DNA of 64,000 nucleotides. It comes from Candidatus Cloacimonadales bacterium. Lineage in GTDB: Bacteria > Cloacimonadota > Cloacimonadia > Cloacimonadales > JAIOQZ01. The translations under genes and the position numbers were made by a program. Shown in pieces: positions 32,607 to 48,334 of this stretch (the stretch's first letter is position 1; each line of letters begins with the position of its first letter). The notes beneath the pieces are model-generated. The model made no database searches. It saw only the letters and a list, made by a program, of their open reading frames with translations, and was not told where the DNA came from. The stretch lies in contig OY762463.1 of NCBI GenBank assembly GCA_963665815.1, positions 1,152,001 to 1,216,000 on the forward strand, given 5' to 3'.

Positions 32607-33365
32607 ATGAAAAAAATGCTCTTTTCATTAATATTGTTATTTTCCCTTCAGATAGTTAATGTTTTTTCCGAAGAAATAACAATTCTGGGAAATGATTATA
32701 AAATCCCAAAAATATATAAAGAAAATGGATATCCAAAGGGTATCCTTGTTGATATTGCAGAATATATAGATATGCATATGAAAAATTATTCATTCAATAT
32801 CAAATTGTATCCATGGGCAAGAGCTTACAATATGGCTGTCAATGCGGAAGGTGGAATTATAGGTTTGTCAAAAACCGAAGAGAGACTTAAAATTTTCGAT
32901 TACTCTGATGTGATTTACTTTGATGAGGTTATCATTGTTGTGATGAAAGGTAGCGAGTTCAATTTTGAAGACATTGCGGATCTGAAAGGTAAAACAATCG
33001 GTATTGGACGTGGAGGATCTTTCGGTGATGAATATGAAGAAGCAAAAAAAGAAGGGCTATTCAATGTCGAACAGGATGATGGACCTGTTATTCGTCTAAA
33101 AATGCTTTTGGACAATCGAATTGACTGTGCTCTGATAAGTCCCGGGAAATATGCATTTTATGAAACACTAAGAAAAGACAAGCATCTGATGGAAATGAAA
33201 GACGAGTTTATTATCCTGTCTAAACCTTTCAAAAGAGATCCAAATTACCTGGGATTTCCTAAAAAAATGAAAATGCAGGATTTTCTGAACGAATTCAATA
33301 ATATTTTACAGCAAGGATATGAAAACGGAGATATTCAGAAACTGATTGATAACTATACAAAGTAA
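32607..33365 (+). CDS. family 3-like extracellular solute-binding protein
   Basis: Signal peptide; GILVDI, YPWARAY, DLKGKTIG, RID. Confidence 0.8.
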   Translation: MKKMLFSLILLFSLQIVNVFSEEITILGNDYKIPKIYKENGYPKGILVDIAEYIDMHMKNYSFNIKLYPWARAYNMAVNAEGGIIGLSKTEERLKIFDYSDVIYFDEVIIVVMKGSEFNFEDIADLKGKTIGIGRGGSFGDEYEEAKKEGLFNVEQDDGPVIRLKMLLDNRIDCALISPGKYAFYETLRKDKHLMEMKDEFIILSKPFKRDPNYLGFPKKMKMQDFLNEFNNILQQGYENGDIQKLIDNYTK

Positions 33366-33440
33366 TTATCTGATTTTACTTTGAAGCAATCAATGGAGGT
33401 ACTGCTTGAACTGTAAAACAAAACAATCATACCAAAGGCG

Positions 33441-34790
33441 TCAACTTTCTCCCTCATTCAACTTCTCATACTGATAATTAAAAACTCTGTACGATAAACC
33501 AAGCAATTCTGCAGCCCTCTTTTTATTTCCCCTGGCTTTCAATATTGCCTGTGTGATATACTTGCTACGGATTTCATTCAAGACTGCTTCAAGGTCAATT
33601 TCACCATTCAGATCTATTATACACTCCAGCTCAGGTTTTACTGAAAACGAGAATGTTTCAGGGTTAATCACATCATCGGACAATACAGCTGCCCGATTAA
33701 TCTCACTTTTCAATTGTCTGATGTTCCCTGGCCAGTCAAACAGCATCAGCTTCCTTAAAGTATCATCATTTATGGCTTTATCAGGATACTTTTTCTTCAG
33801 GAAATAACGGGCAAGTTCCGGAATATCTTCTCTTCTGTCTTTAAGATCAGGGATTACCAGCTCAAAATTATTCAGTCTGTAATACAGGTCTTCCCGAAAA
33901 TCACCGTTTGTGACTTTATCTTTCAACGATTTATTTGTGGCAGAAATCACGCGGACATCCACATGCTGCGGATCAGATGACCCAATTTTATATACTTCTC
34001 CATTCTCCAGAACACGCAAGAGCTTTGCCTGAAACTCCAACGGCATCTCCCCTATCTCATCGAGAAACAATGTTCCTCCGTCTGCTTCGATGAATTTACC
34101 GTTATGATTAGTTACTGCACCGGTAAATGCTCCTTTCTCATGTCCGAAGAACTCGCTTTCAAACAAATCTTTCGGAATTGCTGCACAATTAACAGCTATA
34201 AACTTCCGGTTTCTTCTTGATGATATCTTGTGAATTGCTCTCACAATCAGCTCTTTACCCACTCCGCTCGAACCCTGTACCAGCACAGAAAGCTCTGTAT
34301 TAGCCACTTTCTCTGCCAGATTGCATGTATCTTTTATAGCTTTTGAAGATCCAATAATCTCCCTGAACGGATCGTCCTCGTATATCTGCGACTCAAGAGC
34401 ACTGAGCTTTCTGTTCAGCTCAACAACCCTGACAGCTCCATTGAGTATCGCCAGAATCTCGTTATTATCAAACGGCTTTGACACAAAATTATAAGCTCCG
34501 TCCTTCATTGCCTGAACAGCATGTTTTATCGTTCCGTGGGCAGTTATAAACACGTACTGAGCATGTTTCTGCAATACTTTCAGTTTCTGCATTGCCTCAA
34601 GGCCGTTCAGCAGAGGCATATTCATATCCAGAAGTACAACATCAAACTGGTTTTTACCGCATATCTTTATCGCTTCATTACCGGAATCTGCATCTATAAC
34701 TTCATATCCTTCTTTTTCCAGAAGCATTCTCAGTATTATCCGGATTTTCTCTTCATCATCTACAATCAGTATTCTGTTCTTTTTACTCAT
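33441..34790 (-). CDS. sigma54-dependent response regulator (NtrC family)
   Basis: REC domain; GSSGVGKEL, NCAAIP, FFGHEKGAFTGA, LFLDEIGE, FREDLYYRL, WPGNIRQL; Fis-type HTH. Confidence 0.95.
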   Translation of the reverse strand: MSKKNRILIVDDEEKIRIILRMLLEKEGYEVIDADSGNEAIKICGKNQFDVVLLDMNMPLLNGLEAMQKLKVLQKHAQYVFITAHGTIKHAVQAMKDGAYNFVSKPFDNNEILAILNGAVRVVELNRKLSALESQIYEDDPFREIIGSSKAIKDTCNLAEKVANTELSVLVQGSSGVGKELIVRAIHKISSRRNRKFIAVNCAAIPKDLFESEFFGHEKGAFTGAVTNHNGKFIEADGGTLFLDEIGEMPLEFQAKLLRVLENGEVYKIGSSDPQHVDVRVISATNKSLKDKVTNGDFREDLYYRLNNFELVIPDLKDRREDIPELARYFLKKKYPDKAINDDTLRKLMLFDWPGNIRQLKSEINRAAVLSDDVINPETFSFSVKPELECIIDLNGEIDLEAVLNEIRSKYITQAILKARGNKKRAAELLGLSYRVFNYQYEKLNEGES

Positions 34791-35941
34791 TCTTTCCTCA
34801 TGCCAATTTTAAATTTTGTGCCGACACCTTCTTTGGAGATCACACTCATACTCATATTCATTGCGTCTGCCAGATTTTTTGAGATAGCCAGTCCCAGACC
34901 TGTCCCACCTTTTTTTACAGTAAAAAACGGCTTAAAAATATTACTGACAACATTCTCCGACATTCCGCATCCGGTATCCTCCCAGTATACATGAACATCA
35001 TTACCATTGATCTCTGTATAAATCTTAATCTGTTTACGCTCACTTTCAGAAAGCGCATCAAGACTGTTATTCATCAGATTAACCATAACCTGCCTTAAAG
35101 CATTCTCATCTGCTGAGACAAACTGCTTCTCAATACTATCACTTATTTCCACCGATATTCCCAGTTTAGACAATCTCTGTTCATACAGCAGTTTTACCGA
35201 ATTGATCAGTTCATATAAATCTACTTTTTCAAGGTTTATCACTTTGGGTCTGGCATAAACCAGAACTGACTCGGCAATATCATTTACTCTGTCAACCTCG
35301 CTGATGAGGCTGTCTGACAAATTCTTCAGTTTCTCATCAGGTACACTGTCCATAATAAACTGGATGGAGCTTCTGATTGATGTTAACGGATTCTTGATCT
35401 CGTGAGCTATCATGGAGGCTATGCTTTCCACCACAGACATTTTCTCATTAATAGACTCGTTCTTCAAACGTCTCTGCTCGTGAAGCATTCTTCTGGCGTT
35501 ACCAAGAGCAATTGCAGAAAGACGGAAAACCGTCATGAGAAACTCCAGAACTTCCTTTTTGAGAACTCCCGATTCTATCATGCAAAACCCAATCAGCTCA
35601 TTGTGAGATTCCAGCGGAAAAATGTAGTCGAACTCAATGCCTGAACGGACAACTTCATCCTTATAAACATATTCATAAGCTCGTTCTCCATGATAAAGCC
35701 AGGTTGAATTGGTTTTAAGCCAGTGAACAAGTTCCGAATCAGCAGAGATTTCCTTATTCTTTTCCTGACAGATAAATCCTGTTTCCTTCAGCTCAAAGAA
35801 ACTGACCCTGGTAATATCAAAGAATTCTATGATTCTTCCCTGCATAATCCGCACAACTTTATCCGGATCTACAATAATAGAATAAGCCGAGATAAACTCA
35901 TTAATGATTTTATTGAAATCAATTTTACTTTTATTGAACAT
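34787..35941 (-). CDS. soluble GAF-like sensor histidine kinase
   Basis: IAHEIKNPL, NLMNNS, DTGCG, FKPFFT..GGTGLGL; no TM segment; start reset to the ATG at 35941 behind GGAG. Confidence 0.9.
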   Translation of the reverse strand: MFNKSKIDFNKIINEFISAYSIIVDPDKVVRIMQGRIIEFFDITRVSFFELKETGFICQEKNKEISADSELVHWLKTNSTWLYHGERAYEYVYKDEVVRSGIEFDYIFPLESHNELIGFCMIESGVLKKEVLEFLMTVFRLSAIALGNARRMLHEQRRLKNESINEKMSVVESIASMIAHEIKNPLTSIRSSIQFIMDSVPDEKLKNLSDSLISEVDRVNDIAESVLVYARPKVINLEKVDLYELINSVKLLYEQRLSKLGISVEISDSIEKQFVSADENALRQVMVNLMNNSLDALSESERKQIKIYTEINGNDVHVYWEDTGCGMSENVVSNIFKPFFTVKKGGTGLGLAISKNLADAMNMSMSVISKEGVGTKFKIGMRKE

Positions 35942-35959
35942 GCATAAACTCCATACTGC

Positions 35960-35989
35960 AATATGAAGTATCTTCAGTATTTCTGTCAA
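35960..35989 (-). promoter_or_regulatory. putative sigma70 promoter of the HK-RR operon
   Basis: TTGACA-N18-CATATT on the minus strand just upstream of the RBS. Confidence 0.5.
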
Positions 35990-36022
35990 GATAGCTTTGT
36001 GTAATAGCGGAATCGAGTCTAC

Positions 36023-36039
36023 TGCTTCTGTTATGCCAA
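36023..36039 (-). promoter_or_regulatory. possible sigma54 -24/-12 site upstream of the HK
   Basis: TTGGCATAACAGAAGCA: GG-N10-GC with a weak -12 box. Confidence 0.35.
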
Positions 36040-36211
36040 GCTCTCTGTCGTATATTACAGAAGTGAGGAGGAAGAAAAGGGGGAATTCTGTCATGTGGAA
36101 GTAGTATCATATATATATATTATTGCCTAAATGCAAAATATTAGTATAACATTATAGGTTTAATATTGATACTGGAAAAGTACTGCAGGAATGGCTAACA
36201 ACGTTTTATTA

Positions 36212-36294
36212 CCCTTCGACTCCGCTCCAGGAACTTCCAACTATTATCTTTATCAGTAGGTTAAATTGATTGAGTCCCGAATAATCGGGAAAAG
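36212..36294 (-). repeat. REP-like element A, copy 1 (inverted relative to copies 2 and 3)
   Basis: CCCTTCGACTCCGCTC...TGAGTCCCGAATAATCGGGAAAA; its reverse complement aligns with 39703-39769 and 42161-42222. Confidence 0.75.
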
Positions 36295-36329
36295 TGGCTG
36301 TATGAATATTAAATTATATTAAAGGACAC

Positions 36330-36424
36330 AGAAAACTATTGACTTATTGAGCATAATTCATTCATTTAGGTATTGATACTAAAATCCATGTAATCTGTGA
36401 GGACTGATGAAATATCGCATTTTC
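36330..36424 (+). repeat. duplicated promoter/RBS/start module, copy 1
   Basis: AGAAAAC..TTGACTTATTGAGCATAATTCATTCA....GGTATTGATACTAAAATCCATGTAATCTGTGAGGACTGATGAAAT.TCGCATTT, near-identical to 40143-40236. Confidence 0.9.
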
Positions 36425-37333
36425 CTGTTACTCCTTTTCTGCCTGTTCCTGTTCTCCTGCTCTGACAATAAAAGTAAAGTCTTGAAAATGGAGGATATAT
36501 TCAAACTGGAGTCTGCAATAGAATTAAAAGACATAGATGAAATCCCAGTTTTTACATTTACTGAATTCGGTTTTTTTGCTATGCAAACTCATTCCAGCAG
36601 AGTGTCAAAGTTTCTGAATGATGGAACTGAGGAAAAAGTGTTTGGTAAGAAGGGAAAAGGACCTGGGGAGTTTGAGTGGGGCAGATTTTTGTCTTATTCT
36701 GAAGACATTCATACACTTGGAATATATGATATTCCAAATTTTAGAACGTTGTATTTCAATGATTCGTGCGAGTTTCAGAAACATGACTCTCGTCCAATTT
36801 CCGGGATTCCATACTTCAAACTCAGGAAGAATGATATTGAAGTATTCTCATTTTCTCAATTTCCTGATAATAATGGATTTTGGAAAAATAATATTGCTGT
36901 AAATGACTCTATCATTTTAAGTAATAATGAGAAGACAGATTCACAAATACCGGAGAAGTACTATCAATACAGCTACAATTCAGGCAGAATCATAATTTTG
37001 AAACCAGATGGAACAGACTTCGCGTTATATAATTACGACTTGGAAAACAGGAAGCTGAATCGCATAGAAACAGGTTCTAATAAGCATTACACAGTTAACA
37101 TATCAAGTATCAATAACGTACACACTATTGGAAAATACATCATAATAGAAGCCAGTAACACTGAAGATCGCCTGGAATACATCTTTATGAAGCAAAAAGG
37201 CAAGTACATCGGTACAATGGAGTTTGAAGAGGATTACAAAGCGATTTACGGTGTATATAACAACCACATTTATGTTGTTGAATCTGATGACTCCGAAGAA
37301 TGGATAATAGTACACAACTATATTCTGAAGTAA
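36407..37333 (+). CDS. 6-bladed beta-propeller (NHL-like) lipoprotein 1
   Basis: Lipobox LFSC; FGKKGKGPGEF motif; beta-rich. Confidence 0.8.
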   Translation: MKYRIFLLLLFCLFLFSCSDNKSKVLKMEDIFKLESAIELKDIDEIPVFTFTEFGFFAMQTHSSRVSKFLNDGTEEKVFGKKGKGPGEFEWGRFLSYSEDIHTLGIYDIPNFRTLYFNDSCEFQKHDSRPISGIPYFKLRKNDIEVFSFSQFPDNNGFWKNNIAVNDSIILSNNEKTDSQIPEKYYQYSYNSGRIIILKPDGTDFALYNYDLENRKLNRIETGSNKHYTVNISSINNVHTIGKYIIIEASNTEDRLEYIFMKQKGKYIGTMEFEEDYKAIYGVYNNHIYVVESDDSEEWIIVHNYILK

Positions 37334-37345
37334 AATGGATCACTG

Positions 37346-38269
37346 ATGAAAGCGAAATACATTGTTCTACTATCGATATGCCTGCTGCTGTTTGCCTGTT
37401 CTGACAATAATAGCAAGGTCTTGAAAATGGAAGATATATTCAAACTGGTGAACACTGTCAAGTTAGAAGATACCGATTACTATCCACAACTTATTATTAC
37501 AGAGACTGGTTTTATTACATTTCAAGCTGACTTGAGCAAATTCACAAGATATTTAGATAATGGTGAAATTGTCAGTTCCTTTGGGAAGAAAGGAAAAGGT
37601 CCCGATGAAATAGAATTTGGAAAGAAGTATTATTATTCGAGTGATGAGGATATACTGGGAATCTTTGATGTTATGAACTACAAAATGACGTACTTTGATA
37701 AAACCGGATGTGTAGTTGAGCAGAAATCAGTTCATTTATCAGGAATACCATTTAGAGAATTAAAGATAAATGGTGTTCTCGTAAAAACACATACGAATTT
37801 CCCGAACGAAGACAATAAGTGGCAAAACACAATAACTATTAATGACTCACTAATTCTATCAAATGAGGAAACTCTTAGATCAGGGGATGTTACCGAACTG
37901 AATTATTATTTCTTCAGTTACAATAATGATAAAGTCTATATTGTGGCACCAAATCAAGGTGACTTTGATTTATATGCATACGATTTAATTAAGAAGAACT
38001 TGAAACATCTGAATGTAAAAGGTGGAAATAGTCATAAACAGATTGATATCCATAACATTATTGTAATCGGCAAATATATCATTTTGCCTGTTACCAATGA
38101 TGATGATTCCGGTAGTTGGCTTTGCTATAAGACTAATGGTAGATATGTTGGTGAATTGATTTGTGAAAATGAAAATGATTTTATAGTGAACTCAAATAGC
38201 AAGAATATGTACGTTGTTTCTACTGACAAAGAAGAAAACTATTCAGTAAAAATATACACATTGAAGTAG
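37346..38269 (+). CDS. 6-bladed beta-propeller lipoprotein 2
   Basis: Lipobox LFAC; FGKKGKGPDEI. Confidence 0.8.
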   Translation: MKAKYIVLLSICLLLFACSDNNSKVLKMEDIFKLVNTVKLEDTDYYPQLIITETGFITFQADLSKFTRYLDNGEIVSSFGKKGKGPDEIEFGKKYYYSSDEDILGIFDVMNYKMTYFDKTGCVVEQKSVHLSGIPFRELKINGVLVKTHTNFPNEDNKWQNTITINDSLILSNEETLRSGDVTELNYYFFSYNNDKVYIVAPNQGDFDLYAYDLIKKNLKHLNVKGGNSHKQIDIHNIIVIGKYIILPVTNDDDSGSWLCYKTNGRYVGELICENENDFIVNSNSKNMYVVSTDKEENYSVKIYTLK

Positions 38270-38282
38270 TAAAGGATCACTG

Positions 38283-39230
38283 ATGAAAGCTAAATACTTT
38301 AATCAATTATTACTAATATTTGTATTATGCTCATGCAATTATAGAATGCAGGAGAGGAAGCTTGCTTTTGATATAATCACAGAATTCAATCTCCCAGAAA
38401 TAATTAATCCTGATGTTTGTGCTACGAAAGATGAAATATTTGTAACAAATTTGGCAACTCAAACTGATGGAAAAATTTATACCTATAACTATCAAGGAGA
38501 TTTATTATCAGAATTTGGAGGAAAAGGTGATGGACCTGATGAGTTCACACATATTTTCAATATATTCTATGACTATAATAAAAATCTACTAGGAATATAT
38601 GATTTTTATGGATTCTGTATAAAGTACTATAATGCAAAACATGAATTGGTCATGAAAGATGTTCTTGACAAAACTATGTTTAATAAGGTTTATACGGCAG
38701 AATCAAGTCTTCAAAGTCACTTATTTCCAAAAGATAGCTCAGATAAGAAGCTATACTATTTACACGACTTACATCTGGAAAATGGAAATAAAATATCCCT
38801 TAAGGAAAAAGAGTTCTTATCAAGTGATGACTTCAGCATCTTCAAAGAATCAACAAGAATTGCTGCCAATATGGATTTCTTTTTCATCTGGGATTTAAAT
38901 GGCAATGAAACCTCTGTTGAGCAATTCGACGTGGAGGGTAATCCTGTTAAGAAATGGGATTTGAAGATGCTGCCAAGATATCTGGAAAACATTAAAAAAT
39001 ATAACAGAATACATGCAGGAGATGATTTCATTCTATACGATTTTCAGGACAATAATGATGTTCACTTCTATGACGCCTATGATTTCAAGAATAAATATCT
39101 TGGCACCATTAGAATGAGCAAGCCTGAAGACACAATCCCGTTTGTTTTTAAGGATAAGATTTTCATGCTGGAATACAATGAACAAGACGATGAAGATTTC
39201 TATGTATGTAAAATACTGAAAATGAAGTAA
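38283..39230 (+). CDS. 6-bladed beta-propeller lipoprotein 3
   Basis: Lipobox LCSC; IYTYNYQG..FGGKGDGPDEF. Confidence 0.8.
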   Translation: MKAKYFNQLLLIFVLCSCNYRMQERKLAFDIITEFNLPEIINPDVCATKDEIFVTNLATQTDGKIYTYNYQGDLLSEFGGKGDGPDEFTHIFNIFYDYNKNLLGIYDFYGFCIKYYNAKHELVMKDVLDKTMFNKVYTAESSLQSHLFPKDSSDKKLYYLHDLHLENGNKISLKEKEFLSSDDFSIFKESTRIAANMDFFFIWDLNGNETSVEQFDVEGNPVKKWDLKMLPRYLENIKKYNRIHAGDDFILYDFQDNNDVHFYDAYDFKNKYLGTIRMSKPEDTIPFVFKDKIFMLEYNEQDDEDFYVCKILKMK

Positions 39231-39249
39231 AATCAACAAGGAGACATGC

Positions 39250-39606
39250 ATGCATACACTCATAAAATTCATTGCAATGGTAATAATTCAATCATCAGTA
39301 CTTTATCTTATAACAAATAAATTGATGATGATAAGCAACAGCCCTTTCGTTAAATCTTTAATCGTAACTATTATAATAGCCGCAATTGATTCCGGAGTTG
39401 CATTATTAGTAGGAGATCCTCATGGATTTCATGCCGGAATGTTTGCAAAAATTGCGAACTATCTGACAATTATACCGGCTATTCTAACTTTCAAAATTGC
39501 TTATGATCTTACAGTGCAACAGCTGTTTTTGTTCATTGTAGGTTACAGGATTATTCTGTTTGTTGTTGGTTTTACAATCATCCCCATAACAGCAGCAATA
39601 TATTAA
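39250..39606 (+). CDS. small hypothetical membrane protein (about 4 TM)
   Basis: AAGGAG RBS; four hydrophobic segments in 118 aa. Confidence 0.7.
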   Translation: MHTLIKFIAMVIIQSSVLYLITNKLMMISNSPFVKSLIVTIIIAAIDSGVALLVGDPHGFHAGMFAKIANYLTIIPAILTFKIAYDLTVQQLFLFIVGYRIILFVVGFTIIPITAAIY

Positions 39607-39702
39607 TATAACATGATCGGTTCGGTTTTTTTGCCCTTCCACACCGTTCTCAGAGTGCAAAAAAGCAAATATTTTATAGTCAAAAGTAATTTATGACGTA
39701 GG

Positions 39703-39769
39703 TTTTCCCGATTCTTCGGGACTCAACCGACTTAACGTATTGATAGATATTGATATGATCGTTCCCTGA
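39703..39769 (+). repeat. REP-like element A, copy 2
   Basis: TCCCGATTCTTCGGGA hairpin plus a 48-nt core that is 47/48 identical to 42161-42208. Confidence 0.85.
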
Positions 39770-39783
39770 CAGACTGTGTTGCA

Positions 39784-39815
39784 CCTGACGGCGCTCGAAA
39801 AGCTGCCTGACAAAT
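39784..39815 (+). repeat. repeat B, copy 1
   Basis: CCTGACGGCGCTCGAAAAGCTGCCTGACAAAT; 30/32 identical to 42330-42361. Confidence 0.85.
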
Positions 39816-39960
39816 CTCTTTTTACAGCAGAACTTGTGCAATTTAGTTAGACATAGCTGTCAGTATCTGTATTTCCTCTTTGTCACTTAAAGTCGTTATA
39901 GGCCTACATTAAGTCTTTTCAATTGCAAATTTGTGTAATCGTTCTATCTGTTGATAAAAG

Positions 39961-40097
39961 TAAATTTTCCCGTTAAGAAATCCTGAAGCCTTGGAAGGAT
40001 TTCAGGGGAGATTTATGGTTCCAGCTTGCTGGAAATACATTTTGATAAAGAGTGCCTTTCTTTTGCTTCGTTTTCTTTGGCACCAAAGAAAATGAAG
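39961..40097 (+). repeat. 137-bp palindrome-rich MITE/REP-like element C, copy 1
   Basis: Its reverse complement matches 42426-42562 at 124/137 by manual alignment; internal hairpins TTCCAGC..GCTGGAA and TTTTCTTTGG..CCAAAGAAAA. Confidence 0.9.
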
Positions 40098-40142
40098 AAA
40101 CAAATATCAGGAGTTAAAAATATAAAATGGATTGAAAGATGT

Positions 40143-40236
40143 AGAAAACAGTTGACTTATTGAGCATAATTCATTCAATCAGGTATTGATACTAAAATCC
40201 ATGTAATCTGTGAGGACTGATGAAATTTCGCATTTT
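40143..40236 (+). repeat. duplicated promoter/RBS/start module, copy 2
   Basis: Near-identical to 36330-36424. Confidence 0.9.
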
Positions 40237-41173
40237 TATTATTCTCCTTCTCTGCCTGCTGCTATTTGCCTGTACAGAGAAGAAACAAAATCCAACATTG
40301 GATGTTAAACAAATCAGTTTATTCAAAGTACCCGAACTGTATAAATCCCCGGTTGTATGTGCTGCTAATAATAAAATAGTATTCACTGACGCTGAGGATG
40401 GGGTTATTTATGTTTATAATTATGCTGGAGAGAAACTTAAATCCTTTGGCAATAAAGGACAGGGTCCCGGTGAATTTCAAGGGGTATATCATATAGTCTA
40501 TCAGGAGAATCAGAATCTATGGTACTTTTACGATCTATACCATTGGAAAATCCATGTTTATTCTGATACTTTCGATTACATCAAATCTGAGAAAACATCT
40601 TCTATAATTGCAGGAATGAAACCGTGGAAAGATAATGTTCTTATACAAGTAAGAATTCCGGTAAGTGTCGATGGATCACGAATTTTTGACGACAGGATAA
40701 AAGTGTTCAACCCAAAAGGTGAAGAAAAGACTATCAGGAACAAGCTGCTGAAATCAATAACAGATGTTGAGTTTATGCTAGAATACGGCTTGATGTTTGA
40801 TACGAATTCCAACAAGCTGTTTGTTCTGGATAAACAGCAGAATACTTTCTCCGTAGAAGAGTACACAGACGAGAACACAAAAATCAAATGGGAAATGGAA
40901 GACAACATAACTGTAATAGATAATGCGAAAATATCGGGTATCTATGCAGGAAAAGACTTTATCATTATAAAAAGGCTTAAACCTGAAGATGAGGAAGATA
41001 CATACTATACTTATTATGAGTTCTATGATTTCAATCAGCACTATCTGGGTAAGCTAATACTGAATAATAAAAATGAGTACATAATAGATGTGTACGAGAG
41101 CAAACTGATTAAACTTGTGAAAGACGAAAATGGTGACTACTCATGCAGTATTCTGGAGGTAAAGTTATTGTGA
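40220..41173 (+). CDS. 6-bladed beta-propeller lipoprotein 4
   Basis: Lipobox LFAC; IYVYNYAG..FGNKGQGPGEF. Confidence 0.8.
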   Translation: MKFRIFIILLLCLLLFACTEKKQNPTLDVKQISLFKVPELYKSPVVCAANNKIVFTDAEDGVIYVYNYAGEKLKSFGNKGQGPGEFQGVYHIVYQENQNLWYFYDLYHWKIHVYSDTFDYIKSEKTSSIIAGMKPWKDNVLIQVRIPVSVDGSRIFDDRIKVFNPKGEEKTIRNKLLKSITDVEFMLEYGLMFDTNSNKLFVLDKQQNTFSVEEYTDENTKIKWEMEDNITVIDNAKISGIYAGKDFIIIKRLKPEDEEDTYYTYYEFYDFNQHYLGKLILNNKNEYIIDVYESKLIKLVKDENGDYSCSILEVKLL

Positions 41174-42111
41174 CAGTAGTAAGAAACTTCGCATTCATTT
41201 TTATTTTAATGTTCGTAATTTCCGGCTGTTCAGATAGACGTAATTCTGATGGAAAGCTATCTATTTTGCCAGTTATCAGCTTTGAGATAGAAGGAGCAGG
41301 CAGTTCTCCAATTGTACATGCATCAAAAGATTATATTTTCATCAGTGATATGCTTGATGGAATTGTAAATGTATATAACTATGAGGGAAATAAAATCAAA
41401 ACCTTTGGCAGTAAAGGAAAAGGACCGGGTGAGTTTTTGTCAGTATCGATGTTATGCCGGTTAGAACCATTAGATGAATTAGTAATATATGATGTTTACC
41501 AGAAGAGACTTTCATTCTTCAATAAAGAGTTTGAACTCAGCAATACCGTAAATATTCAGGAATACCTTTTGAGTATACAGCCACTTCAGAACAATTTACT
41601 TTATGTTACCAGAAAACCTGCAGAAAATGGAATGATGAGTGGTTTCAACGATTTAGTAACTATGAAAAATATTAGTTCTGATGAAAAAATCATAACTAAG
41701 AAATTTCTGCCTGCTTCTGATGATGTTTTAACTTATGTGGACAAAGGTCTGCTGATTGATACAAACTCAGAGAATTTGTTCGTTCTGAATAGAGGCGATG
41801 ATTTCGTAATTGAGCAGTATGTTAACGGAACAAACAAGAAAATCTGGAAATTGAATAAAGAAAAAATAAACATTGAGTTCACAAAACTAAATTCTATTCA
41901 TTGTGGTAGTAATTTCATCATTTTGAATTTGGTAAAGGCAGATAACTCTATGAACTATGCATTCTTTGATTTCGACGAACAATTTCTGGGAGAACTCAAC
42001 ATGAATACAGAAAATGAGTATATTATTGATGTACACAAAAACAAACTTATTAAGCTTGTAACTGATGAAAATGGTGATTACATCTGTAGTATTATGGAGG
42101 TAAAGTTTTAA
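41170..42111 (+). CDS. 6-bladed beta-propeller lipoprotein 5
   Basis: GTG start overlapping the upstream TGA, GGAGG RBS; lipobox ISGC; FGSKGKGPGEF. Confidence 0.8.
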   Translation: MTVVRNFAFIFILMFVISGCSDRRNSDGKLSILPVISFEIEGAGSSPIVHASKDYIFISDMLDGIVNVYNYEGNKIKTFGSKGKGPGEFLSVSMLCRLEPLDELVIYDVYQKRLSFFNKEFELSNTVNIQEYLLSIQPLQNNLLYVTRKPAENGMMSGFNDLVTMKNISSDEKIITKKFLPASDDVLTYVDKGLLIDTNSENLFVLNRGDDFVIEQYVNGTNKKIWKLNKEKINIEFTKLNSIHCGSNFIILNLVKADNSMNYAFFDFDEQFLGELNMNTENEYIIDVHKNKLIKLVTDENGDYICSIMEVKF

Positions 42112-42147
42112 GTCACAGCACTCCTGGAATGACTGGCAACTTTTTTA

Positions 42148-42222
42148 CCTTTTGACTCAGCTCAACCGACTTAAAGTATTGATAGATATTGATATGATCG
42201 TTCCCTGAGCGGAGTCGAAGGG
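42148..42222 (+). repeat. REP-like element A, copy 3 (REP doublet with terminal inverted repeats)
   Basis: CCTTTTGACTCAGCTCA ... TGAGCGGAGTCGAAGG imperfect inverted ends. Confidence 0.85.
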
Positions 42223-42329
42223 GAATCAGTTTTAAGTGAATGAAGCGACAAAAATCACTTATTTACTCAGTTTGTCAGAAATCACAGCAACAAACCAGCT
42301 TACTTCTCACTTTTAATTTACAGGTCGCT

Positions 42330-42361
42330 CCTGACGGAGCTCGAAGAGCTGCCTGACAAAT
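42330..42361 (+). repeat. repeat B, copy 2
   Basis: CCTGACGGAGCTCGAAGAGCTGCCTGACAAAT. Confidence 0.85.
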
Positions 42362-42425
42362 TTCATCGAAATCCGTGTATAAATACTTAATTCACCGCAG
42401 ATAAATTAAGATAAATATAATATTC

Positions 42426-42562
42426 CTTCATTTTCTTTGATGCCAAAGAAAACGAAGCAAAAGAAAAGCACTCTTTTTTTAGATGTATTTCCAGCATGCT
42501 GGAACCATGAATATCCCCTGAAATCCTTCCAAGGGTTCTGGATTTCTTAACGAGGAAATTTA
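42426..42562 (-). repeat. element C, copy 2 (inverted)
   Basis: About 90% identical to the reverse complement of 39961-40097. Confidence 0.9.
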
Positions 42563-42615
42563 TTATACAAGTAAAAGAGAGAAAATACAGGTCATGATCT
42601 CTACATTATCCCCCC

Positions 42616-42653
42616 AAAAAAAGCTCTGCCTGACCGAACAGTCAGGCAAAGCT
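42616..42653 (-). terminator. rho-independent terminator of the ABC operon
   Basis: Minus strand AGCTTTGCCTGAC-loop-GTCAGGCAGAGCT followed by a T run. Confidence 0.8.
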
Positions 42654-42670
42654 CTATCAAACATCAACTG

Positions 42671-44071
42671 CTACCTTACGTCATATTTTCTCAAGACAAA
42701 CAGACTTGTGGCAAAAATCAGCAGATTGTATAGAATCAGCAAAGCGAAGGGGCTCACAGCATGCTCTATTCTATCTGCAACAGTAGACTCTGCATATTCA
42801 GAACTAACGAGTTTTTCAGGATGTTCAAAAGCTGCGGTTGTGAATGTATTCCTTCCATCACTCCATGCCCAGTTATAGAATTGATGCAGACTGTTCTCAT
42901 CTTCTTCATCCTGTTTCTTAGCTAGTTCTGACACCTCATCAAGTTTATTGTAAAACTGTTTTTTCTCATTCCTGTATCTAAGGAATCCTATATCAAGGAT
43001 TGAGTTACCGATCCTCCTGAGAAGTTCATAAGGAGACAAAATGGAAAGTTTTAATATCGTTTTCGTCTGGGCTTCAGCATCTCTCAGATACTTTTCCCAC
43101 TCTGCCATTTTCAGAGCATTGGCAGCTTTGACAGCTCCGGATCTCAAACCCTTTTCAACATACATATTACCGGCAACATAGTGCTCATTCTTCTCTTTAT
43201 CATCGTACTTATCACTCCAACGATTAAACTCAGCATTAAAAGCTTCATTCATACGAGTCAAGTATGCTCCAATTGCATCAACTCTGGTTAACTGATTACC
43301 AACAAGTATCGCAGTCTTTGGTATTATCACAATAAACAACAGCCAGCAGACCAAAGCCTTAACAACTGCCGAGTTAGCATTCTTTGCCATGGATATAAGT
43401 ATCCCAAGCAGTATAAAAAAGCTTATATAAATTATTGAGACAAGGCTCCATACGAGTGACTCTAAGATCAGAGAGCCGTTAATCCCTTTATTGAGAAATG
43501 TCCAGATAATAAGTGATAGAACCTGTCCCGCTAGTATTGTAACAAAAAACAGACTGAGAAGACTTGCATACTTAGACACAAGTATCTTATAGCGTGAGTA
43601 TCCTGATATAATCAGCAATCTCAGTGTAGAATTCTGTTTTTCCTCCGATATAACATTATAACTGAAAATGAGAGCTGAAAAACTGCACAAGAAGCCAATA
43701 ATGAAGAACCAGTTGATCCTCTGTTTATAGTCATCATAATTGTGAACAGCTTCTACCTGACGATAAGTAAGTCCACTGGAAAAACCTACAGGATACGATT
43801 CATCTCTCTGAATCACCATAGAGCTCAATGGCTTTCTCATGTAAGTCACTTTTGCATTTGCAATCATCCATGACAAATTTCCCGAACGCTCCGAAGCGCT
43901 ATTCTGAAGAATTTTATACTTGTTATTGTATTTATCAAGATCATCCCTGTACTTGATTGAATTGGAGAAAGCTCCTACAACAAACAGGACTATCAGGATT
44001 GAAAAGAATATCTGAAATTTCAGTTCTTTTACCAGCAGTAAACAGTCTTTTTTGTATAAATTATAAAACAT
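42671..44071 (-). CDS. ABC-2 type transporter permease with large extracytoplasmic loops
   Basis: YNVISEEKQNSTLRLL...SR.KILVSK EAA-like motif; about 6 TM. Confidence 0.88.
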   Translation of the reverse strand: MFYNLYKKDCLLLVKELKFQIFFSILIVLFVVGAFSNSIKYRDDLDKYNNKYKILQNSASERSGNLSWMIANAKVTYMRKPLSSMVIQRDESYPVGFSSGLTYRQVEAVHNYDDYKQRINWFFIIGFLCSFSALIFSYNVISEEKQNSTLRLLIISGYSRYKILVSKYASLLSLFFVTILAGQVLSLIIWTFLNKGINGSLILESLVWSLVSIIYISFFILLGILISMAKNANSAVVKALVCWLLFIVIIPKTAILVGNQLTRVDAIGAYLTRMNEAFNAEFNRWSDKYDDKEKNEHYVAGNMYVEKGLRSGAVKAANALKMAEWEKYLRDAEAQTKTILKLSILSPYELLRRIGNSILDIGFLRYRNEKKQFYNKLDEVSELAKKQDEEDENSLHQFYNWAWSDGRNTFTTAAFEHPEKLVSSEYAESTVADRIEHAVSPFALLILYNLLIFATSLFVLRKYDVR

Positions 44072-44082
44072 CTTTCTTCCCC

Positions 44083-45669
44083 CTATCTGATATCAAACTT
44101 GTACATCAGGTAATAACAGACAATAAGCAGCACGATTATAATCATCAGGAACTGCAGCAAAATTCTGAACGTCCTGCTCAATGATTTGCCTGCACTTAAG
44201 CCTTTAAACTCATACTTAGGCAGGTCAGGGAACTTGAAGTCAAATCTTTCCAATGAGTTAAAATGTGCCAGGCAAACATCTGAATACTCTTGCTGAAGTC
44301 GAGACTTATCTTCCTGTGTCATCTCATGCCCAAGTTTTTTGATGAACTCAGCAGCAAACTCGTTCACATCATAACATACTTCCCCCGGTTCCATCATTGC
44401 ATAATACTCATCACTGTACAACCAGTTATTCTTGATTGCCAAATCAATAAGTCTGTTCCTGAGAGAAACTCCATCCCGCATAAAGTTGATCATATCATCG
44501 ATATCATATCCGGAGTTTTTCTGTGCTGCATCTTCAAAAAGAGCAATTGGTGATGCAAACAAATATAAAGATTTACTTCTCTCCTGCTTTTCCATCAACA
44601 AGAACAATTCCTGCTGTATGTTCTCCATTTTCTGCATCAGAGGATAATAGTCTTCATAAAACACTTTAACTCTGAGTGTCCTGTAATCTAAAACACTGCG
44701 AGTTGTGTACAGGATTGTATTTGTCAACCCTCTCCAACCATTCGAGTTATTATACCAATAAAAGAAGTCTCTTGGTTTATCCTGTAGCCGTTCAGAGCGA
44801 TCGAAATTATCAATTTCTTTCTGAAGCTCTCCAATTTCTTCTCTCATAGCTCTTTGCTGCTTCATTCCGTTTATTTTGTTTGAGAAAAATGAATACCCAA
44901 CAGGTACAAGCACTAACAGGAAAATCCAGATTGCCAGTACCAGAACAAGCGATTTTGCTGTTCTTTTGAAAACAAGTGAGCAAATCGTTCCAATCAAAGC
45001 AAAACATAAAACAAACAGGAATGCAAAAAGCAGATAGTTGACAAGACTAACATAAAAGTATGATGTAATATAGCTTGAATGTTTTATCACCAAATAAAGC
45101 ACACTTAACAGAGTAGGCACCAGTAATACCGTAAATGCGAACAGTGATATTGTCAGAATCTTTACAATCAGAAAGGTGAATTTCTGCACAGGATATGTGA
45201 ACATAAGCCTCAGAGTGCCGTTTTCTTTCTCTCCGTTAATTGTATCGAAGGCTATCAGCAGCACAAACAGTGACAGAAAAAAGGTTATCAGGAATGTTAC
45301 ATCCATATCAAACTTTGTGGGATGAACAGGATTGATTGTCTGTGAAAATGCTGAAGGTCTGGTTATTGATTCAAACATTCTGACTTCAATAATATTTCCG
45401 TATTTATGAGTAATTCCCTCATGAAAGACACTGAACAATTGCGGTGGAATTACAGCCGGTATCATCAGGTAACTATAGTTCTGAGATCTTCCAATTTCCT
45501 TCTGCAACATCTCATTATCATTTATATACTGCTGCTGTCGCTGATTGAACTCACTTAGACGCAGAGAGAATGTAACTCCAAACAGCACCATGAAAATACA
45601 AATCGACCAGATTACTCTATTACTCCTCAGAAGCCTTTTGTACTCGTGTTTTACCAATAGACTGAACAT
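44083..45669 (-). CDS. ABC-2 type transporter permease with large extracytoplasmic loops
   Basis: FDTINGEKENGTLRLMF..PV motif; about 6 TM. Confidence 0.88.
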   Translation of the reverse strand: MFSLLVKHEYKRLLRSNRVIWSICIFMVLFGVTFSLRLSEFNQRQQQYINDNEMLQKEIGRSQNYSYLMIPAVIPPQLFSVFHEGITHKYGNIIEVRMFESITRPSAFSQTINPVHPTKFDMDVTFLITFFLSLFVLLIAFDTINGEKENGTLRLMFTYPVQKFTFLIVKILTISLFAFTVLLVPTLLSVLYLVIKHSSYITSYFYVSLVNYLLFAFLFVLCFALIGTICSLVFKRTAKSLVLVLAIWIFLLVLVPVGYSFFSNKINGMKQQRAMREEIGELQKEIDNFDRSERLQDKPRDFFYWYNNSNGWRGLTNTILYTTRSVLDYRTLRVKVFYEDYYPLMQKMENIQQELFLLMEKQERSKSLYLFASPIALFEDAAQKNSGYDIDDMINFMRDGVSLRNRLIDLAIKNNWLYSDEYYAMMEPGEVCYDVNEFAAEFIKKLGHEMTQEDKSRLQQEYSDVCLAHFNSLERFDFKFPDLPKYEFKGLSAGKSLSRTFRILLQFLMIIIVLLIVCYYLMYKFDIR

Positions 45670-45678
45670 AGCCTCTCC

Positions 45679-46416
45679 TTAATCTGCTTCAACAGATAAT
45701 GAGTTTTCTATTCTGCCTTCCATATAGTCTATATACAGATTTTCCAGATTTTCAAACTCGAATTCATCACGTCTTCTTGAAAGCACAAGTTCACCATCCT
45801 TCATAATACCTATCTGGTCAGCCAGTTCTTTAGCTCTGAATATGTTATGAGTAGACATCAGAACAGCTTTACCGTCTTTCTTCATTCTCAAGACCAGATC
45901 CTGAAAATCCTTTGCGGCTTTTGGATCGAGACCGGAAAAAGGTTCATCCATAAGAATAATATCAGCATCCTTAACAATTGCTATAGCAATACCTGTCTTC
46001 TGTCTCATACCCTTGGAGTAATAGCTGACCGGTTTGTTGATAAAGCTCTCCTGTAGTCCGATATCCCTGAGGATATTCTCAAGCTCGGTTCTTGATCTGC
46101 TTGTTTTGCTTAGATTAGAAAAGAACTTAAGATTTTCATATCCTGTAAAATTCTCATATAATCTGACATTCTCAGAAATATATGCAATATCATTCTTTGC
46201 TTCTCTGGAGTCCTGCACAGAGTCTTTTCCATTAATGATGATTGTTCCCTCGGTAGGTTTTATAAAACCGCAGATAAGGTTTATTGTTGTTGATTTACCT
46301 GCCCCATTCGCCCCGAGAAGCACGTAAATTTCGCCACTTTCAACGTTAAAACTGATGTGATCCAATGCGATCTTCTTGTCTTCATACCTCTTTGTTAAAT
46401 CCTTAATCTTTAACAT
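45679..46416 (-). CDS. ABC transporter ATP-binding protein
   Basis: GANGAGKST, YSKGMRQK, LMDEPFSGLDP, MSTH. Confidence 0.95.
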   Translation of the reverse strand: MLKIKDLTKRYEDKKIALDHISFNVESGEIYVLLGANGAGKSTTINLICGFIKPTEGTIIINGKDSVQDSREAKNDIAYISENVRLYENFTGYENLKFFSNLSKTSRSRTELENILRDIGLQESFINKPVSYYSKGMRQKTGIAIAIVKDADIILMDEPFSGLDPKAAKDFQDLVLRMKKDGKAVLMSTHNIFRAKELADQIGIMKDGELVLSRRRDEFEFENLENLYIDYMEGRIENSLSVEAD

Positions 46417-46425
46417 TCTTCCTCC

Positions 46426-47850
46426 TTAATTTCGTGATAACTTCACCATGAAGTATATCAGCATTCCAAGTATTGTTATTGCCGCGAGAATCAGAATTAT
46501 ATTAAGCCAGATGTTGGACTTGTTCAAAATCTCCATTTTCAGTTCCTTATCTGACGTGAATATACTTTTACTAATATCTTTGCCCTTTGCTTTAATCCTT
46601 ACCTGATATATTCCCTGGAGTGATTTCTTATCAGGGATTATGTTGAATTTAAGCTTTTGCTCCTGCTCAGGTCCCAGCTTATCAATAAACTCAGGTTCAA
46701 TCACCTTTTCCCACCCTGATGGCATGAGCACCTCAAATGTCACATCCTTAATCACTTTCTTACCTGTATTCTTGATGCTGAATTGAGAGATTTCGAACTC
46801 TTTACCCTTTTCCTGCACAAAATACATATTGTCCAATGACAGCTCCATCTCGGCTTTGCCCACAGGAATAATCTGCAATTCACTTGATCCTGTCTCCTTG
46901 TTTTCCGAACTTAGAACATTTACACTAAACACCAGTGCTTCGTTAAACACAGATTCATCTAATTTTTCTGGAACAGATATACTTAGAGCTACATTATGAA
47001 CAGGTTCCTGAGCAGACATTGCCAGTGTTGAGATCGCAGCATTGTTCTTAGCATTAATAAAGTTGAAAGAGTAAGTTCCCGGTAGTCCTGCACAATTTAG
47101 TTTATACACCTCTCTTGAAGCTCCGAAATACTCAATTCTCAGATTGTAGATTGCTGATGCTGCAGTTTCAACTTCCTGGGAAAACACATTAGAGGTAATA
47201 ACAACAGAATGCTCCGCTGTTTTTCTCTTCAGCCACACCCTTTTCTCATCAACCTTACCTGCGTAAACTGCAGATACTGTTACAGCCTGAACATCCTTTA
47301 GCACAGAAAAATCTATTGTGTAACTTTTACCGGACAGCATTTCAGGGATATGATATTCGTAGGGTTGAGATATAATGTTCCCGGACTCATCCTTGAGCGA
47401 TACATACACATTGTATAGACTTTCAGGTCTCAGCTTCATATCTTTGAGAGTACTGATCAAATCATCTTCAAGAGCGTAAGAACCGGCTGAATTATTCCTT
47501 ATTTCCATCACAACTTTGTAACGACCTGTTTCATCTTTATATTTCTCTGCTTTCACGACAGTTATGTATGGATTTTCAAAGATTACTCCCAGCATATACT
47601 GCTGAAAATTCAGTTCATCATTCTCATACTGCAGCTTGATGTTCTCAAACTCATCTTGAGAGATGTACTTCTTCTCAAATAACTTTTGAGCTCGATTAAA
47701 TTCCTGCTCTGACTGCTCAAGCCTTTTCTTAGCTTTCTGTAATGCCAGAATACGGAACCTATCATCATTGGGATTATACTCCTGATAAGTAATTCCACTT
47801 ATGATGGACATTATTATTAAATTGATCATTAATAAAATTATTTTCTTCAT
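46426..47850 (-). CDS. NEW3/Ig-like domain membrane-anchored protein with an N-terminal coiled-coil hairpin
   Basis: Signal peptide; AKKRLEQSEQEFNRAQKLFEKKYISQDEF (resembles membrane-fusion-protein hairpins); IKNTG...PSGW..EP..I.KLGP...GIY (NEW3-like); C-terminal TM. Confidence 0.75.
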   Translation of the reverse strand: MKKIILLMINLIIMSIISGITYQEYNPNDDRFRILALQKAKKRLEQSEQEFNRAQKLFEKKYISQDEFENIKLQYENDELNFQQYMLGVIFENPYITVVKAEKYKDETGRYKVVMEIRNNSAGSYALEDDLISTLKDMKLRPESLYNVYVSLKDESGNIISQPYEYHIPEMLSGKSYTIDFSVLKDVQAVTVSAVYAGKVDEKRVWLKRKTAEHSVVITSNVFSQEVETAASAIYNLRIEYFGASREVYKLNCAGLPGTYSFNFINAKNNAAISTLAMSAQEPVHNVALSISVPEKLDESVFNEALVFSVNVLSSENKETGSSELQIIPVGKAEMELSLDNMYFVQEKGKEFEISQFSIKNTGKKVIKDVTFEVLMPSGWEKVIEPEFIDKLGPEQEQKLKFNIIPDKKSLQGIYQVRIKAKGKDISKSIFTSDKELKMEILNKSNIWLNIILILAAITILGMLIYFMVKLSRN

Positions 47851-47870
47851 TATATCTCCACCATTGATAT

Positions 47871-47887
47871 TGCATGCTGAGTGCCAA
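47871..47887 (-). promoter_or_regulatory. sigma54 -24/-12 promoter of the NEW3-ABC operon
   Basis: TTGGCACTCAGCATGCA = TGGCAC-N5-(A)TGCA with exact GG-N10-GC spacing, 20 nt upstream of the ATG. Confidence 0.75.
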
Positions 47888-47971
47888 AACATTTTTATTG
47901 TGTATTATGCGGAAAATAGAGGGTTTATAGTTAAGTTATAGCTCAGAGAAGAAATAGATACATTCCAAAAT

Positions 47972-47986
47972 TGTAGATATCTGACA
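47972..47986. promoter_or_regulatory. possible enhancer-binding-protein upstream activating sequence
   Basis: Imperfect palindrome TGTAGATATCTGACA, 85-100 bp upstream of the sigma54 box. Confidence 0.35.
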
Positions 47987-48023
47987 AAAAAGTAATTTTT
48001 ACACTGTCTGAACAGTTTTATGC

Positions 48024-48052
48024 TTGACTTTTTTTTATAAAATCTTCATATT
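48024..48052 (+). promoter_or_regulatory. putative sigma70 promoter
   Basis: TTGACT-N17-CATATT. Confidence 0.6.
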
Positions 48053-48059
48053 GAATCTT

Positions 48060-48204
48060 GTTAAATGACTTTATGTAGTATGTAAGGTTTGCAATGAGTT
48101 TATTGCACTTTTGAAGTATTGGGCGTACTTCATTAACACTCCGCAAAAGGTTAATAATACATTATATAAAGTCTGGCTGTTGAATTTCAACAGCCTTTTT
48201 TTTT
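48060..48204 (+). ncRNA. candidate structured small RNA (four-way junction plus terminator)
   Basis: P1 48067-48079/48161-48173 encloses three hairpins; bounded by the promoter and the terminator; no ORF in the track. Confidence 0.55.
48175..48204 (+). terminator. rho-independent terminator
   Basis: GGCTGTTGAA-t-TTCAACAGCC followed by T9. Confidence 0.85.
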
Positions 48205-48334
48205 ACTCAACCTTAAACATGTTGTTTTCAGGACTTTACTTCTTGATTTAACTAATGCTCAGTTTAACTATTAGCTTGACATTTAAACGATTTTCAAAAG
48301 CTGTGAAATCATAAATCAATTATTTAAGGAGAAT

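Follow-up and report, generated by a model that had tools for sequence, protein, structure and literature searches.

Whether genes that lie side by side also work together is the question raised by positions 33441-47986 of a 64,000-nucleotide stretch from Candidatus Cloacimonadales bacterium (contig OY762463.1 of assembly GCA_963665815.1), a genome of 3.96 Mb in a single contig; the whole stretch is referred to here as the window. Its minus strand carries an operon for a membrane-anchored protein with a NEW3 domain, an ATPase and two permeases and, at some distance, the genes of a histidine kinase and an NtrC-type regulator, while five propeller lipoprotein genes lie between them on the opposite strand. 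A preliminary description, made from the sequence of the window, took all of these for a single envelope system in which the propellers serve as interchangeable cargo, receptors or decoys. Comparison with related loci suggests a different answer, namely that the locus probably holds two unrelated things: an inducible Cloacimonadales exporter, with the NEW3 protein as a non-canonical adaptor, and a propeller array that is not connected with it. The transporter, its promoter and its regulator had been rightly grouped, as is indicated by synteny, reciprocal best hits and joint loss, and it is the propellers that fall outside.

All genes of the preliminary description, including the minus-strand operon and the kinase and NtrC genes, were found again by open reading frame (ORF) listing and by Pfam and NCBIfam scans (Table 1). 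The transporter belongs to the ATP-binding cassette (ABC) proteins and shows the features of an ABC-2 (type V) exporter, with a PF00005 match of 113.7 bits and PF12679 matches of 94.4 and 74.7 bits. The very large permease loops noted earlier were confirmed, since the external loops comprise 89 aa between transmembrane segments (TM) 1 and 2 and 244 aa between TM5 and TM6 in permease A, and 83 and 177 aa in permease B. Permease B has six hydrophobic segments, and permease A yields seven hydropathy windows, two of which adjoin (161-198) and were taken as one TM. The NEW3 gene and both permease genes are single-copy in the genome; the ATPase is 53-76 % identical in orthologous loci outside the genus and 98 % identical in the sister species (locus L015), with respect to which the cassette genes show ratios of non-synonymous to synonymous substitution rates (dN/dS) of 0.01-0.07. 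A predicted complex of permease A with residues 20-474 of the NEW3 protein scored 0.52 and one control 0.55, and the result was used neither way.

The NtrC-type protein is, as had been stated, the only (strong) sigma-54 activator in the window, but this proves little in a genome with 16 strong sigma-54 activators, and it is synteny that settles its relation to the operon. The regulator shows the domains of the NtrC family (PF00072, PF00158 and PF02954, all above their cut-offs) together with the GAFTGA motif. The orthologous set consisted of 16 Cloacimonadota loci, of which one is the window, 11 come from 41 related genomes and four from a species-genome collection. In seven of the 16, the kinase and NtrC genes lie directly 3' of the transporter genes, on the same strand and with small gaps, in the order NEW3, permease, permease, ATPase, kinase, NtrC, and in the window and the sister species the propeller array separates the transporter genes from the kinase/NtrC pair. 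In one further genome, the operon and an ortholog-level NtrC gene share a contig devoid of any propeller match but are 29 kb apart; in another, the NtrC gene is on a different contig, the NEW3 contig ending there. All six cassette-linked NtrC proteins tested matched the window regulator best in this genome (411-548 bits versus at most 338 for paralogs), and so did all six cassette-linked kinases with respect to the window kinase (207-295 bits versus at most 122). Comparison of loci thus indicates, at the level of sequence, both a conserved cassette and its link to this regulator.

The kinase was described as lacking a membrane segment, and the hydropathy scan indeed revealed no hydrophobic segment in it. 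Its AlphaFold2 model (mean predicted local distance difference test score, pLDDT, 77) contains a small alpha/beta sensor domain, for which Pfam gave no credible match but two chance-level rows only (E 0.014 and 0.068); a soluble kinase with such a domain points to a cytoplasmic signal. The gene most likely begins at ATG 35941, because all orthologs start there and the supposed extension contains a 1-nt indel in a same-genus genome; the longest ORF (34787-36094) was rejected on these grounds. The sister species has almost the same approximately 170 nt upstream of the kinase gene, whereas the kinase coding sequence shows a synonymous divergence (dS) of 0.26. This leader contains TGGCATAACAGAAGCA at 36023-36038, a weak -24/-12-like box that agrees with the sigma-54 consensus at 8/11 positions, as well as a sigma-70-like site, TTGACA-18-CATATT, at 35960-35989 (consensus scan), and may have kept an autoregulation of the kinase and regulator genes after their split from the operon.

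The sigma-54 box that had been reported in front of the NEW3 operon is present. ATG 47850, which follows a GGAG, is the most likely start of the NEW3 gene and places the box TGGCACTCAGCATGCA upstream of the gene and not inside it; the longest ORF (46426-47892) was rejected, as its extension would contain the box. The box fits 10 of the 11 specified positions of TGGCAC-N5-TTGCW, with GG and GC 10 nt apart. Within the window, boxes with at most one mismatch are not significantly enriched (3 found versus 1.58 expected, with 17 of 100 shuffles reaching 3), so that the case for the box rests on its position and conservation. The strict form, TGGCA[CT]-N5-[AT]TGC[AT], has only 20 copies on both strands of the genome, including this one, and rpoN (Sigma54_DBD) is represented by one gene. 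A -24/-12-like box, identified with a relaxed pattern drawn from these loci (background 0.0097 per 100 nt per strand), is kept at the same place in 14/16 orthologous loci, 29-85 nt before the NEW3 start. The two loci without a box are those of the two genomes whose best NtrC match is paralog-level (293-320 bits), while the best match reaches 481-583 bits in three box-bearing genomes; box and regulator therefore appear to have been lost together, since neither box-less genome has an ortholog-level regulator.

Upstream of the box, the window contains two imperfect palindromes of the type TTACA-N4-TGTAA, and among the window's palindromes only this pair (47963-47995) is conserved in relatives. 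Such a pair occurs in 9/14 box-bearing loci with at most four mismatches to the consensus and in 11/14 with at most five, 41-101 bp upstream of the box and with the palindromes 18-20 bp apart. The perfect palindrome at 48003-48016 was also considered as an activator site and was rejected, as even the sister species does not share it. Taken together, position and conservation suggest that the operon would be read from the sigma-54 promoter and that the palindromes are putative activator-binding sites. A genome-wide search with the palindrome pair for further targets of the regulator was uninformative, as it returned 51 pairs at the level of the window's pair (four mismatches).

The NEW3 protein is the least conventional part of the cassette. 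Its NEW3 domain is unequivocal (PF10633, 46 bits versus a cut-off of 24.4), and its orthologs, 37-92 % identical, have an invariant TYQEYNPND right behind the signal peptide. The AlphaFold2 model (mean pLDDT 83) consists of the signal peptide, an alpha-hairpin (30-59/65-90), three immunoglobulin (Ig)-like beta-sandwiches and a TM helix (447-473), which corresponds to the C-terminal segment at 451-469 found by hydropathy. The resemblance of the hairpin to membrane-fusion proteins, suggested in the preliminary description, was strengthened by three findings: sub-threshold matches to adaptor models, the motif at the hairpin tip and a TolC-like gene upstream in distant relatives. The tip carries RxxxLxxxxxxS in register (R53, L57 and S64), the motif through which, according to PMC3391258, the tips of MacA, AcrA and MexA engage TolC (hereafter RLS). 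Of 138 aligned family representatives, 66 have R, 125 have L and 115 have S/T at the respective tip position, and in 7 of 15 diverse family members a sub-threshold match to the adaptor model TIGR01730 covers the hairpin. The same full-length architecture was found in 193 representatives at E <=1e-30 in a profile search of 1.84 billion representatives, and Atlas lists for one family member name several phyla, which serves as a lead only. Literature searches, limited to open-access full text, yielded no description of this architecture.

A second, distant set of loci, found with a narrower alignment, comprised 80 metagenome loci of a clade whose NEW3 homologs are 23-31 % identical to the window protein. 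ABC genes lie beside the NEW3 homolog in 65 of the 80; kinase and/or NtrC genes are present in 18, usually divergent and upstream, and in 17 of these 18 a canonical sigma-54 box precedes the first operon gene. In all five cases tested, the NEW3 homolog is immediately preceded by an ORF for a protein of the Pfam family OEP, to which TolC-like channels belong. Upstream sequence of 1.8 kb or more is available for 53 distant loci, and in 24 of these tblastn placed an OEP gene immediately before the NEW3 homolog and on its strand; in nine more distant loci, an incomplete OEP gene is seen where the contig ends. A canonical box precedes 19 of the 25 operons of this clade that start with an OEP gene. 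The full RLS motif occurs in 32/34 loci with an adjacent TolC-like gene and in 36/43 other metagenome loci. In one locus (L070:755-6203) a complete resistance-nodulation-division (RND) pump, made up of an HlyD-type adaptor, an AcrB-type transporter and an OEP protein, is encoded directly upstream of the permease-ATPase-NEW3 genes, and some of the OEP adjacencies could thus belong to a neighbouring pump. In some of all the related loci compared (L018, L037, L068, L083, L092 and L098), two or three successive permease pairs, sometimes with a second ATPase, follow a single NEW3 gene, so that one adaptor-like protein may serve several permease sets.

The propeller array has a different history. 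The five lipoproteins were correctly described: all have a Cys-containing lipobox and the G.KG.GP.E motif, three of the five exceed the cut-off of PF17170 (DUF5128, a six-bladed propeller family), and a profile of the five matches NHL propellers of the PDB (6d69, 3.9e-16; 4raa, 243 positions, 6.6e-10), the fold being assigned from these sequence matches. The small membrane protein encoded among them also exists, with 118 aa and 94 % identity in the sister species, but the hydropathy scan revealed three hydrophobic segments in it, not the four reported. The membership of the propellers in the system is where the preliminary description did not hold, and it was its own proposed comparison of homologous loci that spoke against it: tblastn with the five proteins, which are divergent enough for distant propellers to be missed, found no homolog in the fetched flanks of the 14 other Cloacimonadota loci or of the 80 metagenome loci. 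With the family profile, 34 matches were obtained in this genome, where the transporter is single-copy, and 30 in that of the sister species, while the other 39 relatives gave 0-5 each. A full-length NEW3 ortholog is present in 12 of the 41 genomes, the propeller family in seven and both in five. Several of the 34 matches lie in further tandem arrays of this genome, for example at C1:311904-316380, 2362463-2363964, 2443205-2448105 and 2544012-2546957.

No sigma-54 box scoring at least 8/11 was found upstream of any array gene, and propeller genes 1 and 4 (36407 and 40220) have a common duplicated upstream region containing TTGACT. The propellers have dN/dS values of 0.15-0.41 with respect to the sister species. 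In the same comparison, dS amounts to 0.21-0.65 across the array, kinase and regulator (33441-42111) and to 0.87-1.34 in the transporter genes (42671-47850); the lower values of the former segment hint at its more recent exchange or at different codon constraints. Dispersed repeats flank blocks of the array. A 140-nt repeat, containing several small perfect hairpins, has 42 blastn matches in the genome (74-94 % identity), and an inverted pair of copies brackets the last two propeller genes; a second repeat, of about 80 nt, has 19-25 genome matches, and further stretches of dispersed repeats lie at 36208-36293, 39703-39818 and 42161-42364. These repeats could be elements resembling miniature inverted-repeat transposable elements (MITE) or repetitive extragenic palindromic (REP) sequences, or structured RNA; Rfam matched no family over 33000-48500. 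The comparison of loci indicates that the array is foreign to the cassette and would represent a genus-specific insertion or rearrangement of an expanding, fast-evolving lipoprotein family.

Several observations weigh against reading the cassette as a sigma-54-controlled exporter with an adaptor. A TolC-like gene is absent from the window and from all fetched Cloacimonadota loci (0/16), and outside the genus the RLS arginine is replaced in 10 of 11 Cloacimonadota loci (by N in seven, A in two and S in one), so that docking to an outer-membrane channel may have been lost in this lineage. The lipoyl, beta-barrel and membrane-proximal domains are missing from the model of the NEW3 protein, and a Foldseek search with the whole model returned generic tandem Ig proteins only, with no adaptor among the matches listed. 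The -12 GC is kept in only six of the 14 boxes, GT being found in five and TC in three; the window's palindrome pair is no better than 50 others in this genome; and the box pattern was relaxed, and the palindrome consensus derived, with these sequences already in view, so that the counts made with both lean towards the reading. The distant-clade regulators score about equally against paralogs of this genome and hence are not demonstrable as orthologs. The limited reach of the propeller search mentioned above weighs against the foreignness of the array.

These points bear unequally on the alternatives. The loss of the arginine makes a serious rival of a machine confined to the inner membrane, in which the NEW3 protein would assist an ABC-2 exporter or extractor from the periplasm, either as an accessory or as a scaffold that receives the substrate, as in GldG-GldAF or NosD-NosFY, its hairpin would serve oligomerization or contact with the permease loops, and no outer-membrane channel would take part in Cloacimonadales. 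The lack of a linked TolC-like gene fits such a machine, as do NEW3 proteins of the COG1470 type that have the same body of Ig domains and anchor but no hairpin, and that Atlas lists, again a lead only, place in several other phyla. Nevertheless, the window's genus retains R53, L57 and S64, the leucine and serine positions are kept family-wide (125/138 and 115/138), the upstream TolC-like gene of the distant loci speaks for a channel, and about seven OEP genes elsewhere in this genome (16 domain matches), none of them linked to the cassette, could serve as one; an inner-membrane-only role is therefore considered rather unlikely. The original proposal of one system comprising the transporter, the two-component system and the propellers as cargo, receptors or decoys is very unlikely. 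The position of the array between transporter and regulator in both species of the genus agrees with it, and the propellers evolve fast, as variable receptors might, but it is opposed by the failure to find propellers in the other 94 loci, their dispersed copies, the differing phyletic patterns, the 29-kb gap between cassette and regulator on a contig without any propeller match, and the repeats and missing sigma-54 boxes of the array. No more can be said for the possibility that the sigma-54 box is a chance match or relic and that the operon is read from a sigma-70 promoter such as TTGAAA-18-TATAAT at 48161-48190 on the minus strand. This site does fit the consensus at 11/12 positions, the box count of the window is not above chance and the -12 element is degenerate in 8/14 orthologous boxes; yet the sigma-70 and terminator scan is itself at chance level (62 sigma-70 sites found versus 56.6 expected), and a box position kept in 14/16 loci, canonical in the distant clade and lost together with the regulator makes this account very unlikely. 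The divergent gap between the NEW3 gene and an acetate kinase gene also contains, at 48161-48195 of the plus strand, a GC-rich hairpin of 9 bp with a T-run behind it, which overlaps the 11/12 site on the minus strand.

The preferred reading, that of an inducible exporter with a non-canonical adaptor, may be set beside several known systems, of which YbhGFSR of Escherichia coli is the closest functional analogue. YbhGFSR likewise has a heterodimer of two separate ABC-2 permeases (YbhS and YbhR), a periplasmic partner encoded in the same operon and a probable unlinked TolC (PMC7190983; PMC13739795). The differences are considerable: YbhG is a canonical membrane-fusion protein, whereas the partner encoded here joins its hairpin to three Ig-like domains and an anchor at the C-terminus; two ATPases are fused in YbhF, whereas the cassette has a single ATPase of 245 aa; YbhGFSR is under a TetR-type repressor instead of a sigma-54 promoter and a two-component system; and the permeases of the window, unlike those of YbhGFSR, contain another very large loop, which connects TM5 with TM6. 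With the MacA, AcrA and HlyD adaptors, the NEW3 protein shares the alpha-hairpin with its RxxxLxxxxxxS tip, over which the sub-threshold adaptor-model matches extend, and the operon partnership with a transporter and, in its relatives, with an OEP gene; in contrast to them, its hairpin is N-terminal and not inserted in a lipoyl domain, and its anchor is a C-terminal helix. Adaptors are defined, in the part of PMC13328181 that treats them, by hairpin, lipoyl, beta-barrel and, in most, membrane-proximal domains. The NEW3 protein, which has no HlyD-type Pfam match either, lacks all of these except the hairpin and thus falls outside that family, even if it works like one of its members.

By sequence, the NEW3 protein appears to belong with the COG1470/NEW3 (PF10633) membrane proteins, which have not been characterized and which also have a NEW3 domain, a C-terminal anchor and several tandem Ig-like domains; COG1470/NEW3 names are carried by the Atlas neighbours of a family member, as a lead only. 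In the Atlas structure lists, to be taken in the same way, COG1470 proteins of about 390-420 aa align only from about residue 110 onwards, and so would be without the hairpin. Searches of open-access full text for COG1470/NEW3 proteins turned up nothing tied to ABC transport except one secretome list. The two-component pair resembles AtoSC and ZraSR in the domain order of the regulator and in its HisKA/HATPase_c kinase, and its best NCBIfam rows are AtoC and AtoS, but the scores are far below the equivalog cut-offs (404 versus 714 and 176 versus 646 bits), and the kinase differs from those of AtoSC and ZraSR in lacking a membrane segment and in having a sensor domain without a credible Pfam match. 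In Bce systems, the kinase is membrane-embedded with two TM helices, the permease is of the 10-TM FtsX type and the regulator is of the OmpR type. With the flux-sensing BceRS-BceAB modules, which the preliminary description had offered as an analogy, the cassette shares no more than the principle that one ABC transporter has a two-component system of its own; its kinase is soluble and its permeases are of the ABC-2 type, so that the Bce architecture is not present, and its regulator is NtrC-type.

On this basis, the cassette might work as follows. The soluble kinase would sense a cytoplasmic cue by means of its alpha/beta domain and phosphorylate the NtrC-type activator, which would bind the two TTACA-N4-TGTAA sites approximately 76-110 bp upstream of the -24/-12 promoter and turn on the four genes for the NEW3 protein, the ABC ATPase and the two ABC-2 permeases. 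The permeases would form a heterodimer with large periplasmic loops, and the NEW3 protein, held in the inner membrane by its C-terminal helix, would span the periplasm with its three Ig-like domains and present the RLS tip of the hairpin at the far end. Acting like membrane-fusion proteins, it would connect the ABC-2 pump with a TolC-like channel whose gene lies elsewhere in the genome, and the substrate would leave the cell through this channel; both the docking to TolC and the direction of transport are inferred. The propeller array and the small membrane protein would have been inserted between the transporter and the kinase-regulator genes in this genus only, in a repeat-rich region.

Table 1. 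Positions of the genes and sites of the locus within the 64,000-nt window
Feature	Positions	Strand	Basis and remarks
NtrC-type regulator: REC, Sigma54_activat and HTH_8	33441-34790	-	Pfam; GAFTGA in sequence
Soluble histidine kinase: ~125-aa alpha/beta sensor domain, HisKA, HATPase_c	34787-35941	-	Pfam, ortholog alignment, AlphaFold2 model
Putative leader/promoter region of the kinase gene, non-coding	35942-36110	-	Alignment with sister species
Propeller lipoprotein 1 (NHL/DUF5128-like, six-bladed)	36407-37333	+	
Propeller lipoprotein 2 (NHL/DUF5128-like, six-bladed)	37346-38269	+	
Propeller lipoprotein 3 (NHL/DUF5128-like, six-bladed)	38283-39230	+	
118-aa membrane protein within the propeller array	39250-39606	+	Single copy in genome
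Copy of the 140-nt dispersed repeat	39961-40100; inverted partner 42423-42562		blastn
Propeller lipoprotein 4	40220-41173	+	
Propeller lipoprotein 5	41143-42111	+	
ABC-2 permease B, 6 TM	42671-44071	-	PF12679, hydropathy, synteny
ABC-2 permease A, 6 TM	44083-45669	-	PF12679, hydropathy, synteny
ABC ATPase, DrrA/GldA-like group, 245 aa	45679-46416	-	Pfam/NCBIfam
NEW3 protein	46426-47850	-	Pfam, NCBIfam, AlphaFold2 model, ortholog alignment
Sigma-54 -24/-12 box TGGCACTCAGCATGCA	47871-47886	-	20 nt upstream of ATG 47850
Tandem imperfect palindromes, consensus TTACA-N4-TGTAA, 19 bp apart	47963-47995		76 bp upstream of box; proposed activator sites
Perfect palindrome ACTGTTCAGACAGT	48003-48016		

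Elsewhere in the window, the minus strand encodes at 27041-30196 a 1051-aa protein with Reg_prop repeats, Y_Y_Y, PAS and HisKA domains, which ends 28 residues past HisKA without a HATPase_c domain (Pfam) and may be a truncated or split sensor kinase.

Judged from sequence comparison, transporter, promoter and regulator make up a system that is genuine, conserved and uncharacterized and that includes an adaptor-like protein of new build. Gene proximity is misleading at this locus, because the repeat-rich insertion of a lipoprotein family has split the operon from its regulator. Beyond the window, the hairpin-NEW3 proteins of approximately 480-510 aa may, as a tentative proposal that falls somewhat short of probable, constitute an unrecognized class of adaptors coupling ABC-2 exporters to TolC-like channels under a sigma-54 two-component switch. 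For tripartite efflux pumps, one adaptor architecture is described in the relevant part of PMC13328181; if the proposal is true, these proteins would represent a second one, which keeps only the hairpin tip and would thereby reveal what an adaptor really requires in order to open a TolC-type channel, and ABC-2 pumps with large periplasmic loops would join the trans-envelope machines. The cassette would also provide a compact sigma-54 regulon, with one kinase, one activator, two proposed sites and one operon, in a phylum with almost no genetics.

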